Origin: Candidatus Thorarchaeota archaeon | GTDB lineage: Archaea; Asgardarchaeota; Thorarchaeia; Thorarchaeales; Thorarchaeaceae | Assembly (NCBI GenBank): GCA_004524445.1 | Contig: SDNP01000007.1 | Span: forward strand, 1-64,000 | Direction of reading: 5' to 3' | DNA: 64,000 bases | Shown: in pieces, positions 3,656-41,110 of the stretch | Layout of the letters: every line of letters starts with the position of its first letter | How positions within the stretch are numbered: the stretch's first letter is position 1 | The notes under the pieces: generated by a model | Database searches by the model: none | Seen by the model: the letters and a program-made list of their open reading frames with translations, nothing else | Told to the model about the DNA's origin: nothing | Position numbers and translations under genes: made by a program

Positions 3656-5893
3656 TTATTCTGCTTTGCCAAGGAGCCCCAACATCAGCCCCTCTGTATC
3701 TGCAGTCACAATGAAGCTGCTGGTCCACTCAGGGAAGTCTGGCTCATCCCCCTGGTCCAGTATCTCCCTCCATGCCTCATCGGTCAGACGGTCGCTCATT
3801 GGTTGAGTGAACTCATAATACGAGAAAGTGCCTCCCCTTGCCAGCATAAGTTGCCCATTGATAGGAACTGCCACAATGATGATGTGAGGGTCTCCCACAG
3901 CCTCCTCTAGGACCTTCATGGTGTTAGGGTCAGTGTGTACATCCGCAATGAGAGACATATATTTGTCAATACCAGAGGTGATCAAGGGGTCTTCGGGCAT
4001 GGTCCCAATGTACTCTAGTGTGTGTCGCGCGGATTCGATTACCTGAATATCTGTTTCATTGATGGACTGCCCAGCCAGCTCCTTGATTGCGATGGACCTG
4101 AGATCGAGTAGGAATGAGTGGAGTGTTTCCAGCCTATCTTGAAGCCGCTCCGACAATAGGCTCCGCGTACCAAGTCCTTCAAGCATCATCAAACACAAAG
4201 ATGCAAGCCGTCCGTAGACAGTCGGAACGGGTTCTACATAGCCAGGAGGCTGCTCGGGAGATGGGGCCGCCTCGGGTGCCGCATATGATTGCTTAGCATA
4301 GAGGATTGTGTCGTGTCTAAGTTCTGTCCAAGATGCAAGCGCCGTGTGAAGCTGTTTGTCTACCCAAGCCTGATTTCGCATGAATAAGGGATGTGCATCG
4401 CTGGGCTCATGCAGGAGAGGTAGGAGTGAATAGAGCCACAGGTAGTACAGATTCTGGACCCATTCTGCATCGGTCATATTACTGATTCCTGACCTGAGCA
4501 TCTCCATCTGCTCGACATAGTTCTCATATTCTTTCTGATCTTCCAAGAGTTCCCATGCCCTCTCAGAACCGAAGGCTGCCATGACATCGAGACCCTTTGG
4601 CATGAGTCGTGGATTATTGATGGTTCCAACATGCTGATAGACCAATTGTCCAAGAATGTAGCTATCTGGAATGAACCGTTGCCCCATGAAACGCATACCC
4701 TTCGTGACATTGATGTCTTCACCATAAGCTACTGGGGAACCGAGAATCAATGGGTCATGTAGGTCTTCTGCGGTCTCAATGAACTCCCCAAGAAGACTCT
4801 CGTTTTGAAGGATTGACCAAGAGGGATTGGCGCCATAGACATTTTTGATGACCTGCGAATAGTCGAGTGGAGTGGGATCATCTGCTACTCCAACAAAGAA
4901 TGCTGTTGGCTCATACAGACTGTCCCAGACATCATAGCCTGAAAGCTCTATGTTAAATCCACTGACAGTTTCATTCATCATTAGTGCCATCAGAATTGCC
5001 TGACGGGTGTTGGAAAGGCTCTCTAGTCTGAACTGGACCCGTCCAAGCCACATCATTGCCAAAAAATACTTGCTCAGGACCTCACTTCGTGTGTAGTGCC
5101 CTCTAGGCACAAATTGAGTAAAATCTTCCATATAGCTCATGAACCAGTCATCTGTCATTATGGTATGATTGCCAATGTACCCCAATACTTGGTTGACTTC
5201 CGATACAACATCAGGGTGGATATATGTAGAGTTATCGAGAAGGCACATTGCAACAGTGAAGTAGGCAATATTCAAACGTGCGGCCTCTCTCCATACCCCT
5301 TCCGGTGCGTCTTCGTACACCTCGTAGGCTTCTTGAAGTAATGAATTGGTCAGATTTCCAAGGAGGTCCCAGAATGAATAGACCTCTACCTCCCTAAGGG
5401 CAAGATCGTAACATACATGAAATGCATGAAGCACTGCGTCACTCGTGATGAAGTTAGGAATCTCCGTCCAATAGTTCCCATCAAGGATTTCATAGATTTG
5501 ACTGAATTGATTTTGTGTGATGACTACAAATCCATTCTCAGTTATCTTCTGTTTAGCTCCTTCACTCAAATGACGAAAATCTTCTTGATTGACAACATTC
5601 GATAAGGATGGATCTATAGAATAGCCCGAGCTGGCGAGGATATACCACTCAGCATATGGAATGTATTCGCCAAACGAAGTGGTAATTGAACGATTTATAC
5701 TTCTGAAGTTTCCCCGATATGGTGCGGGAGTAGGTGGATACTCAGGACTAATCGGACTATAGATGCCACCATAGAATGCTAAAGCAACAACAATTGTTGC
5801 TGCCAATAAGGAAGCGACAATCCCTCCTGCACCTATCTTGCGCTTTACCTCGTCATCAATCGCTCTAATCCCACGATTAGTAATCATATCCAA
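3656..5893 (-). CDS. DUF3160 domain membrane-anchored/secreted protein
   Basis: N-terminal TM segment; family-typical motifs FITSDAVLHAFH, PRGHYT, WTELRHDTILYAKQSY, GYVEP, LTDEAW. Start may be a few codons downstream. Confidence 0.85.
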   Translation of the reverse strand: MDMITNRGIRAIDDEVKRKIGAGGIVASLLAATIVVALAFYGGIYSPISPEYPPTPAPYRGNFRSINRSITTSFGEYIPYAEWYILASSGYSIDPSLSNVVNQEDFRHLSEGAKQKITENGFVVITQNQFSQIYEILDGNYWTEIPNFITSDAVLHAFHVCYDLALREVEVYSFWDLLGNLTNSLLQEAYEVYEDAPEGVWREAARLNIAYFTVAMCLLDNSTYIHPDVVSEVNQVLGYIGNHTIMTDDWFMSYMEDFTQFVPRGHYTRSEVLSKYFLAMMWLGRVQFRLESLSNTRQAILMALMMNETVSGFNIELSGYDVWDSLYEPTAFFVGVADDPTPLDYSQVIKNVYGANPSWSILQNESLLGEFIETAEDLHDPLILGSPVAYGEDINVTKGMRFMGQRFIPDSYILGQLVYQHVGTINNPRLMPKGLDVMAAFGSERAWELLEDQKEYENYVEQMEMLRSGISNMTDAEWVQNLYYLWLYSLLPLLHEPSDAHPLFMRNQAWVDKQLHTALASWTELRHDTILYAKQSYAAPEAAPSPEQPPGYVEPVPTVYGRLASLCLMMLEGLGTRSLLSERLQDRLETLHSFLLDLRSIAIKELAGQSINETDIQVIESARHTLEYIGTMPEDPLITSGIDKYMSLIADVHTDPNTMKVLEEAVGDPHIIIVAVPINGQLMLARGGTFSYYEFTQPMSDRLTDEAWREILDQGDEPDFPEWTSSFIVTADTEGLMLGLLGKAE

Positions 5894-9169: not shown

Positions 9170-9892
9170 ATGCCGAAAAGCAAGTTCTCCAGAGATATCG
9201 ACGCGTTGCTATTGGAGCTGACGCCACACTCCAATTCCGATGTCATGTCGAAATTGGGAAATATACGAGATCGTTTGGTCCAGCTCAAGAAGCAACGAGT
9301 GGTAAAAATCAACCACAGTGTATTGGAATTACTTGTTTCAAAATACCTGTTGGAGTCTGGATATGATGTCTGTGTAGAGGAACCTGTGGACGGAGGCTCA
9401 CTGATTGCTGATATTCTGGCTCATCGCAGACCAATCAAGAAAGCTGAGATGCTGAAGCAATCCATAGAGCAAGAAGTCATGATGGAGGAATCAGAGAGCC
9501 TACTTGTAGAGATTGAAACGGGCTTCGTACCCCCCTTCGCTGCTCTCAATCCAGGAAACTATAGACAGGCTCGCATAGCCGCTAAGATTGCCCGCTATAG
9601 TTGCCTGACTGACAGATTTGCTCTGGGTGCTCCATTCTATCATTTGCTTCAGATACCACGCATGTACTTGAGTAATCCAAAAGAGAGAACTGAGGCTGAA
9701 GCCCAGAAAATCAAGGCCCTATGTGATATTTATTATCGTAATCCTCGTATTCCAATTGAGAGTCTATTTTCAGCAGAACTGGATTCTGTCTACCTTATTG
9801 ATGTAGATAATAGATCCGTTTCCCGCTTATCCGCTCGCTCTTACCTTGAATATCTTCGAGGGCCAAGTGACTTGTTCAAGGCGGTCACATGA
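9170..9892 (+). CDS. Conserved archaeal hypothetical protein with PD-(D/E)xK-like nuclease fold
   Basis: H...E helix, GYDVCVEE, IADILA, LLVEIETG pattern typical of restriction-endonuclease-like folds (ExE variant). Confidence 0.6.
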   Translation: MPKSKFSRDIDALLLELTPHSNSDVMSKLGNIRDRLVQLKKQRVVKINHSVLELLVSKYLLESGYDVCVEEPVDGGSLIADILAHRRPIKKAEMLKQSIEQEVMMEESESLLVEIETGFVPPFAALNPGNYRQARIAAKIARYSCLTDRFALGAPFYHLLQIPRMYLSNPKERTEAEAQKIKALCDIYYRNPRIPIESLFSAELDSVYLIDVDNRSVSRLSARSYLEYLRGPSDLFKAVT

Positions 9893-9914
9893 ACGGCCGG
9901 AAATATCACACGCC

Positions 9915-9929
9915 CCAAACCTTATTAGG
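9915..9929 (+). promoter_or_regulatory. Putative BRE/TATA promoter of the ncRNA
   Basis: CCAAAC-CTTATTAG, 23-30 nt upstream of 9951; resembles CTTTATCT and CTTATAA found upstream of the tRNA-Thr and tRNA-Pro genes in this window. Confidence 0.5.
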
Positions 9930-9950: not shown

Positions 9951-10176
9951 AGCCGTCCGAGGAGTACGCTAACGACTGACGAGCTGAGCATGTTCGTGTT
10001 GGGCACGACCATTAACCCGATCGCAAGGTGGTCGAGCATAAATACAGCACGGATAGCTGATCGGCACATAGCGTGACTAAGTAGTACCCAATAATTCGGT
10101 AGCTGGGTATTGCGTCGAAGTCATGCATACGATGAGATAAGGCCGATAATCAGTCGAGGCTTAGACTCGGACGGCT
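9951..10176 (+). ncRNA. Unannotated structured RNA closed by a bulge-helix-bulge motif (predicted precursor of a 197-nt circular RNA)
   Basis: 11-bp terminal stem 9951-9961/10166-10176; 4-bp helix 9962-9965/10159-10162 flanked by 3-nt bulges ACG (9966-68) and AGA (10163-65); further helices 9973-79/10150-56, 10060-65/10142-47, 10071-78/10119-26, 10081-90/10104-13, 10006-10/10030-34; G-U pairs work only on the + strand. Confidence 0.75.
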
Positions 10177-10252
10177 TCCTTATTGTATGGCACATTCATG
10201 GAACTTTTTCATGATCATCTCAGCAATAGGAAACACGGTTCTTTCTCTTGTT

Positions 10253-11059
10253 TTACTCTCGTAGGGGAAGATTAAGATATCCTCTGATGTTGTAGATATG
10301 TTCTCTCTCATGCTCAAGGAACCTACGAATGATTTTGTAAGTAGACCATTTCTCATTGGGGTATCTTGTATAGTCGGGCCTTGTCAATATCATCCCATTC
10401 TTTGATGGGATTAAAAAACGAAGGGTCTCAGTACTTGCCCCTCTAACTATCTCCATTCTCTCAAGTATTGGCAGTGAATCAGCTTGGGATTCTGGCATAC
10501 CAAGATACTCCTCATAGATTCTGTCAGTTTCTTCACCTAGTCTAGAAATGTAGAATTCTTCTGCATTACAAATATGCGCAAGAATGCCTTGGATATTTCT
10601 GCTCTTGGCTGGAGGTGTCTTCTTCATGACTTCTGAAGGTAGATCTCTCACCAATTCCAAAAGATCCACTCTATTATATCTCATACATCGAATGCATCTC
10701 TCGAGCAGGTCATTGCTTACTCTCTGGCGATCGAAATCATAGAATGCAACCTCTCCTCCCGACTCCCCTAGTTCTGCCACGTTGGACTCAACATCTGTAA
10801 CAGCCAATTCAATTTCGTTAATGGTAGGAGTGGACTCCCCGTGGCCTTCTAACCATTTGACATGATAGGACACTTCTTTCTCAAGGCGAGAAATAACTTC
10901 TTCCTGGGACCTGCCTCGAGCATGTGTGCCAATCAATTCTACTATTCGGCCATACCAGAGGTTATCTCCGCCATGTTCCAAGGCAATTCTCTGAGGCATC
11001 GGATAAGCCACCCTGAGGTGAGATTTGAACTTAATCCATATATCCTTGCTCTTCGACAC
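10253..11059 (-). CDS. HicB-like N-terminal domain fused to DinB/YfiT-like metal-binding domain
   Basis: ELIGTHARGRSQEEVI (HicB-like) plus ILAHICNAEEFY and RRFLEHEREH (DinB His triad). Confidence 0.7.
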   Translation of the reverse strand: MSKSKDIWIKFKSHLRVAYPMPQRIALEHGGDNLWYGRIVELIGTHARGRSQEEVISRLEKEVSYHVKWLEGHGESTPTINEIELAVTDVESNVAELGESGGEVAFYDFDRQRVSNDLLERCIRCMRYNRVDLLELVRDLPSEVMKKTPPAKSRNIQGILAHICNAEEFYISRLGEETDRIYEEYLGMPESQADSLPILERMEIVRGASTETLRFLIPSKNGMILTRPDYTRYPNEKWSTYKIIRRFLEHEREHIYNIRGYLNLPLRE

Positions 11060-41000: not shown

Positions 41001-41110
41001 GGGCCCGTGGCATAGACTGGTTATTGCACCGCTCTGATATGCGGGCGAGAGTCATAATCGCCCCCTCCGAGAGGCGGGGGCCGAGTGTTCAAATCACTCC
41101 GGGCCCACCA
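41001..41110 (+). tRNA. tRNA-Ile(GAT) with 32-nt intron at 37/38 (41040-41071), CCA encoded
   Basis: Acceptor GGGCCCG/CGGGCCC; CCGCT-CT-GAT-A|intron|A-GGCGG; relaxed BHB with bulges TA|T and AG|A. Confidence 0.92.

Follow-up and report, generated by a model that had tools for sequence, protein, structure and literature searches.

A circular RNA with tandem pseudoknot modules in Asgard archaea, encoded beside a protein of predicted PD-(D/E)xK nuclease fold

A stand-alone gene in a Candidatus Thorarchaeota genome gives rise to a 197-nt circular RNA whose joint is present in environmental RNA, and which belongs to a family found in Asgard and TACK archaea. The precursor gene occupies positions 9951–10176 (+) of the window, the 64,000-nt stretch of contig SDNP01000007.1 analysed here, and the mature circle corresponds to positions 9968–10164 (+). 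We have very little doubt that the circle is real, and consider a functional link between it and the protein encoded next to it likely. The explanation that we tentatively favour is that EndA and RtcB make a stable ring which would bind and regulate this co-inherited, nuclease-fold protein.

The precursor segment lies between a 240-aa open reading frame (9170–9892, +) and a DinB-like gene (10253–11059, −). Consistent with a preliminary description made from the letters alone, it is richer in GC (about 0.50) than the DNA just upstream (0.28) or downstream (0.36–0.38), and is preceded by a TATA-like box, TTATTA (9922–9927). Together with an A-rich BRE this box forms an archaeal promoter-like element (9914–9927, +) with the same BRE/TATA spacing in 27 homologues; a sigma-70 promoter scan returned no matches, as expected. 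Downstream, a terminator-like pyrimidine- and T-rich tract (10176–10186, +) is conserved in homologues. The fold of the element has a z-score of −6.1 against shuffles, none of 200 of which equalled it.

The ends of the precursor pair as an 11-bp outer helix (9951–9961/10166–10176), with 11 of 11 pairs of the Watson-Crick type in the window sequence, 98% of cells paired across homologues and double-sided changes in 6 of the 11 pairs. Inside it, a bulge-helix-bulge (BHB) is formed by a 5′ half (9962–9970, +) and a 3′ half (10157–10165, +). The H helix (9962–9965/10159–10162; pairs G-U, A-U, G-C and U-G) carries bulges of 3 nt each in BHB polarity, ACG (9966–9968) and AGA (10163–10165), which place the cuts at 9967/9968 and 10164/10165, and is followed by the 2-bp helix h′ (9969–9970/10157–10158). 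The 11-bp stem, the 4-bp helix with two G-U pairs and the 3-nt bulges were thereby all found as first described. The CU/AG pairs and the 7-bp inner closing helix (9973–9979, partner 10150–10156, +; top covarying pair 9976–10153) are likewise present, but they do not form a continuous run, as a 2-nt AA bulge overlooked earlier lies between them. The intron of the tRNA-Ile gene in the window (41001–41110) and the identity of its AGA bulge (41070–41072) with that of the element were confirmed; many host tRNAs bear introns, and the genome also holds a tRNA-Sec gene (G000:C49:39356–39446).

The preliminary description had predicted a 197-nt circle from these cuts and proposed a search of metatranscriptomes for the back-splice junction. 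The element's stretch is present in twelve RNA runs, which come from three salt-lake studies, and in four of the four runs examined (X3, X6, X9 and X10, spanning the three studies) a 227-nt contig covers 9968–10164 and joins 10164 to 9968, exactly as predicted; such contigs carry neither strand nor abundance. Their length equals 197 + 30, as expected of a circle at k = 31. The joint shows no microhomology and no letters that fit both sides, which argues against template switching. In these four runs the flanks and both exon arms are uncovered, as are the neighbouring genes, which are therefore unusable as an expression ratio. Two strain differences in the RNA contigs, C10072U and G10112A, retain their base pairs. 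RNA libraries may contain DNA, and a search for the joined form in metagenome DNA gave 39 matches to a 16-mer, none with flanks of the Asgard RNA family.

The 2.8-Mb host genome contains 7 instances of BHB-like geometry closed by at least 11 bp of outer helix, and shuffled genomes contain 9–10; taken by itself, the geometry is therefore at chance level. The BHB of the element is placed above chance because it is conserved and because the RNA joint coincides with its cuts in every run examined. As a separate observation, the strongest BHB-like match in the host genome (G000:C62:25848–26395) has a 21-bp outer helix enclosing a 499-nt insert.

Archaeal circles are known to arise when EndA cuts BHB motifs and the excised piece is ligated (PMC12558985, PMC4731332). 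The host genome encodes two EndA-family (tRNA-endonuclease-domain) proteins and RtcB, which presumably cut and ligate the precursor. We envisage that the gene's own TATA promoter drives transcription, that the precursor ends fold to the BHB and are cut twice, after the second bulge base on each side, and that ligation would yield the covalent circle together with a hairpin by-product. The latter, formed by the ligated exons, has 29 nt and 11 bp and is not tRNA-like, and no tRNA gene is called at the element; the earlier statement that the joined exons are not a tRNA stands, and on the same grounds the element was rejected as a tRNA intron. Conceivably it is this hairpin that functions, the circle being a stable by-product as tRNA introns are. 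Good conservation of the outer helix and of the H strand suits that reading, as does the fact that a 29-mer would be too short for k=31 contigs; we nevertheless judge it very improbable, given that the interior covaries strongly and contains two pseudoknots and loop letters conserved across phyla, and that the hairpin does not resemble a tRNA.

The interior of the circle consists of two homologous tandem pseudoknot modules, A (9988–10064, +) and its second copy B (10071–10147, +). Each is built from a lower helix, a single A facing an A-rich 8-nt strand, an upper stem and a loop, the latter pairing with the segment just 3′ of the arm's base, giving pseudoknots PK1 (10017–10022 with 10059–10064) and PK2 (10096–10100 with 10142–10146). 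Among 44 distinct copies, the 63 proposed pairs are paired in 88% of cells, compared with 29–35% for slid-structure controls, and 49 of the 63 show double-sided changes. The 44-copy alignment was fitted to part of the proposed structure with the pseudoknots left out of the fit, and mutual information recovered PK1 unprompted. PK1 is paired in 99% of cells with compensatory changes, and reaches at least five Watson-Crick pairs in 42 of 43 copies against 25% of cross-species pairings. PK2 covaries more weakly (78% of cells paired) and reaches that number in 36 of 43 copies; its support is less independent because cross-species pairings already reach 53%. In the circular fold, the ligated junction (10158–10164 joined to 9968–9970) can refold as a GGC(UUAG)GCU hairpin, and the letters GC(UUAG)GC are invariant in two Bathyarchaeia/TACK alignments with interiors 52–69% identical. 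The conserved letters of this end cassette reach the exon side of the outer helix. Three other structural or coding proposals were rejected: the minimum-energy structure contains a helix (10060–10065/10142–10147) that most homologues disrupt and that competes with the two pseudoknots, a K-turn in the internal loop would need a G-A register incompatible with the covarying helix, and a coding circle is contradicted by the lack of a conserved ORF and by circle lengths that are no multiple of three.

Comparison with known RNA classes points to a new one. Rfam, searched at gathering thresholds and up to E 10, gave no match for the element or its Bathyarchaeia and Nitrososphaeria homologues, in keeping with the initial impression that hallmarks of SRP RNA, RNase P RNA and 5S rRNA are missing. 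Each of these identities was rejected: a permuted SRP RNA (no RF01857 match to E 10; canonical gene on contig C30), RNase P RNA (no RF00373 match; canonical gene on C49) and 5S rRNA (no RF00001 match; canonical gene at C8:2613–2732). Module A loosely resembles the helix II/III arm of 5S rRNA, and an origin as a 5S paralogue was discarded on account of the looseness of this likeness and the presence of canonical 5S, which is found in 36 of 36 genomes of the host family. Independently of the element, three host-family members (L172–L174; G036:C15:39893–40044, G008:C16:65988–66137 and G002:C2:29256–29407) have expanded 5S genes, 150–152 nt long and carrying roughly 30 inserted nt, and among other Asgard families 5S rRNA was unmatched in f4, f5, f9, f11, f13, f14, f15 and f18 and gave split matches in f3 and f17, which may reflect permuted 5S genes.

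A box C/D sRNA was rejected, as conserved boxes are absent from the alignments and only weak minus-strand chance matches occur. No variable guide segment is evident in the RNA, and across 38 loci its longest complement to the partner mRNA is 7–9 nt (11 in one case), equal to shuffles; a type I antisense antitoxin was dismissed for the same chance-level complementarity to the neighbouring mRNA. A MITE, named in the preliminary description as an alternative, or another mobile repeat was rejected: the element is single-copy in the host genome and its orthologues span genera. These two observations also weigh against a viroid-like or mobile circular RNA that was copied into the genome, as do the element's own promoter, the absence of any match to a ribozyme family, and the lack of a viral or joined-form DNA copy, with neither the element pattern nor a relative of the partner protein found in viral contigs. 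The RNA is circular and non-coding, one Bathyarchaeia type is rod-shaped and 1–4 copies occur per genome there, all as a viroid-like origin might have it, and we still regard such an origin as barely credible. A literature search, with most subscription journals outside its reach, found the RNA family nowhere described. The proposal of a new archaeal circular ncRNA class is thus supported, as a conserved family matching nothing in Rfam or in the literature searched.

When a covariance model was run on Asgard genomes, 31 of 60 further members of the host (Thorarchaeota-like) family gave homologues, as did 1 of 40 Asgard genomes from outside that family. The BHB and inner helices covary among homologues, and the BHB is degenerate or absent in some copies. 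Bathyarchaeia and related TACK archaea carry this same end cassette around differing interiors, namely a two-module type (circle of about 200 nt), a one-module type (106–111 nt), a rod with a conserved apex (115–160 nt) and a fourth type. Structures in the Bathyarchaeia RNA sets covary, with the H helix paired in 99–100%. In Nitrososphaeria, three loci have a BHB-closed RNA of 192–193 nt with other letters just 3′ of the same protein gene. All of these Bathyarchaeia, TACK and Nitrososphaeria RNAs are predicted from their sequences to be circular. The one-module Bathyarchaeia model (R3) matches module A of Asgard copies, with E to 2e-5 when filters are off; the window element was missed in the filtered genome search and its module A was matched with filters off at E 0.03. 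Absences of the RNA from whole genomes are soft because R3 missed the window element in that search.

Several variants of the family deserve mention in their own right. The Nitrososphaeria RNAs (L102:3709–3935, L119:3742–3969 and L123:3696–3917) comprise three hairpins about 100 nt 3′ of the protein gene, and have a differing BHB whose junction would give a GNRA-type hairpin. Two rod-type copies lie apparently head to tail at L273 (G105:C9:21937–22220), and R3 indicates a possible three-module version of about 320 nt (G173:C12:34744–35063) and a possible two-module version (G213:C43:5156–5391). Genome G012, 98% complete and without the protein, has two degenerate-BHB copies 1.6 kb apart (L175:2983–3230 and 4593–4839), the type of which is resembled by a 256-nt RNA contig in run X10. 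A BHB-less paralogue class (L155, L156, L159–L168, L170 and L171) is served by a promoter of its own, contains the two modules and ends in a conserved 3′ tail; it often co-occurs in a genome with the circular type. These paralogues retain promoter, modules and pseudoknots without the protein; since they keep both modules, the interior has a function of its own which none of the readings considered here explains.

The partner gene (9170–9892, +) encodes the 240-aa protein mentioned above, with six residues invariant among 71 sequences (H49, E70, D81, E114, E116 and K139). Its monomer model (pLDDT 90.6) resembles 3dnx (VIA; Z 10.3, rmsd 2.5, 105 residues), 2okf (Z 9.1) and 1y88 (Z 8.4), while Foldseek returned no match at E 0.001 or better and no family of Pfam, NCBIfam or PADLOC was matched. 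By modelled fold and conserved acidic site the protein is a member of the PD-(D/E)xK superfamily and a putative metal-dependent nuclease. It is also predicted to form a symmetric homodimer, with a score of 0.77 (best control 0.00), a mark reached by 20 of 30 solved homodimers and 1 of 23 single chains; pLDDT is 85 and runs agree in at least 96% of contacts. Relatives occur in Asgard archaea, Bathyarchaeia, Nitrososphaeria, Methanomassiliicoccales, Sulfolobales and others, amounting to about 250 clusters at 50% identity and at least 572 places in GTDB genomes. In the tree, Asgard and TACK clades stand apart (99/92 and 99/89) and Methanomassiliicoccales is nested in TACK, the outer rows being unsure owing to long branches. 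Homologues on three bacteria-binned contigs (L072, L090 and L127) nest among Bathyarchaeia proteins, and these contigs are probably mis-binned.

RNA and protein are largely inherited together. Among 101 Asgard genomes, 20 of 20 with a whole or contig-edge partner gene carry the RNA; the two are adjacent in 18 of these, in tandem, divergent or convergent orientation and with changing flanks, and the full BHB is visible in 19, being half masked in the other. Two genomes with truncated partner genes have no RNA. Thirteen RNA-bearing genomes are without a whole gene: six hold only BHB-less copies, four have drifted junction letters with BHB geometry retained, and three, 74–87% complete, have canonical-looking RNA. 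In one genus with the protein in 0 of 10 genomes, BHB geometry persists in four. In a sample of the Bathyarchaeia class, the RNA was found in 31 of 60 protein-positive and 0 of 41 protein-negative genomes; kin among these are not independent, such that Fisher values overstate the association. With the present models the RNA was not found in the remaining 29 of those 60, in five Methanomassiliicoccales-type genomes, or at partner loci of Sulfolobales, Pyrodictium, Korarchaeota and Nitrosotenuis. Two such Sulfolobales loci, one in Saccharolobus islandicus L.D.8.5 (L181:2936–2990) and the other on a Metallosphaera contig (L182 about 2940–2995), have a box C/D sRNA, weakly matched by sR3 (E 0.003), directly 5′ of the partner homologue, and no BHB RNA was seen there. 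The circular form is thus kept mainly where the protein is kept, and the protein can occur alone.

This distribution bears on what the circle does. Were it a housekeeping RNA with another partner, the linkage to the nuclease gene being inherited synteny, its persistence without the protein in 12–13 Asgard genomes would be expected, as would the separate locations of the two genes in G006, in G031 and in roughly one in three Bathyarchaeia that have the RNA. Against this, the genes lie side by side in three orientations and with four kinds of RNA interior amid otherwise varying neighbours, and the RNA is absent from all protein-negative Bathyarchaeia sampled; we hold the idea to be improbable. 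Scarcely less so is a type III-like toxin-antitoxin or defence pair in which the pseudoknotted circle would be the antitoxin of a toxic nuclease. Two neighbouring genes, one for a nuclease-fold protein and the other for an RNA of tandem pseudoknots, suggest such a pair, as does the pattern in the Asgard family, where whole protein genes all come with intact RNA and truncated ones are present in the two genomes lacking the RNA. However, the protein occurs in many genomes without detectable RNA (interiors of other kinds may escape the models), is a slowly evolving single-copy protein with distinct Asgard and TACK clades, and has neither a defence or protein family assignment nor a viral copy; antitoxins are labile and a circle is stable. 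A strict antitoxin role fits poorly, and since the circle is kept mainly with the protein and the protein is also found alone, a regulator of a non-toxic enzyme, or a maturation or turnover protein, fits better.

The last of these, a protein acting as biogenesis or turnover factor for cassette circles while the RNA functions through its modules with another partner, we consider unlikely on balance. Such a protein would recognise the BHB or the junction, and would aid or make the cuts or open old circles. EndA recognises shape, and the conserved letters on the exon side of the outer helix exceed its expected need; the RNA is never found without the protein in Bathyarchaeia, the BHB is lost in 6 of the 13 protein-less Asgard genomes, the modules survive in BHB-less paralogues, and a two-fold nuclease dimer would suit a two-fold BHB. 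In contrast, the cut positions are canonical for EndA in a host that has EndA and RtcB, and BHB geometry persists in the genus without the protein. PD-(D/E)xK cleavage moreover leaves 5′-P/3′-OH ends, an end chemistry that RtcB does not join.

We therefore return to the circle as a regulatory ligand of the partner protein, a role that we regard as possible. The stable product would be the circle, comprising the junction hairpin, the closing helix and the two pseudoknot modules, and would act as a ribonucleoprotein with the homodimeric PD-(D/E)xK protein. The dimer most likely reads the end and junction cassette, because the cassette alone is common to all RNA types beside the protein. As an exonuclease-proof ligand, the circle might then restrain or position the nuclease, as a decoy or regulator rather than a guide or antisense RNA; this is the weakest step of the proposal. 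More broadly, we cautiously hypothesise an ancient system common to Asgard and TACK archaea. In it, the tRNA-splicing machinery would use one reusable BHB end cassette to turn several interiors into dedicated circles, and the hairpin made by ligation would be read by the homodimeric nuclease, circularisation thereby switching control of this enzyme.

The family, spread over Asgard and TACK archaea, would serve to make a ring of novel fold, and the junction of the 197-nt ring is seen in environmental RNA. If the proposed pairing is true, it represents a prokaryotic class of circular RNA that is produced for its own sake, has a dedicated protein partner and is no rearranged housekeeping RNA. The system would offer a direct test of whether dedicated circular RNAs act as protein regulators in prokaryotes, as well as a short natural cassette for producing RNA circles with EndA and RtcB.

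The BHB-derived archaeal circles known so far are introns, rRNA intermediates and rearranged familiar RNAs. The permuted circular SRP RNA of Thermoproteus tenax (Plagens et al. 2015, PMC4731332) is such a rearranged RNA, whereas the present host has a normal SRP gene, the interior of the circle matches no Rfam family and a nuclease-fold gene is co-inherited. Circular tRNA introns and BHB-derived circular 16S/23S (pre-)rRNA (PMC12558985, PMC12918454) have the same BHB geometry and cut positions, but here no tRNA or rRNA lies around or inside the circle, the excised piece is conserved and the exons form the short hairpin. The circular omega-RNAs of IS200/IS605 elements are also archaeal circular ncRNAs tied to a nuclease gene, but arise without a BHB and are transposon-borne with TnpB (PMC12558985). 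The element, in contrast, is accompanied by no IS or TnpB fold and contains no variable guide segment. Type III toxin-antitoxin systems (ToxIN, CptIN and TenpIN) likewise encode tandem pseudoknot RNA units beside a nuclease gene, the toxin cutting the RNA into repeats. The present RNA differs in being circular and BHB-processed, and the protein in having a PD-(D/E)xK rather than a ToxN fold (no profile match to the ToxN/CptN/TenpN endoribonuclease family) and in occurring often without detectable RNA. With the PD-(D/E)xK nucleases SPO1766 (3dnx), XisH (2okf/2inb), AF1548 (1y88), NucS and CdiA-CT (4g6v), the partner has the core fold and acidic site in common; it differs from them in its 7–18% identity, its lack of an existing family model, its E-x-E motif with a separate conserved Lys and its extra N-terminal helices. 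The route of cutting and joining is the known part of this system. New are the class of RNA with its module, the cassette that several interiors reuse and the pairing with a nuclease-fold protein.
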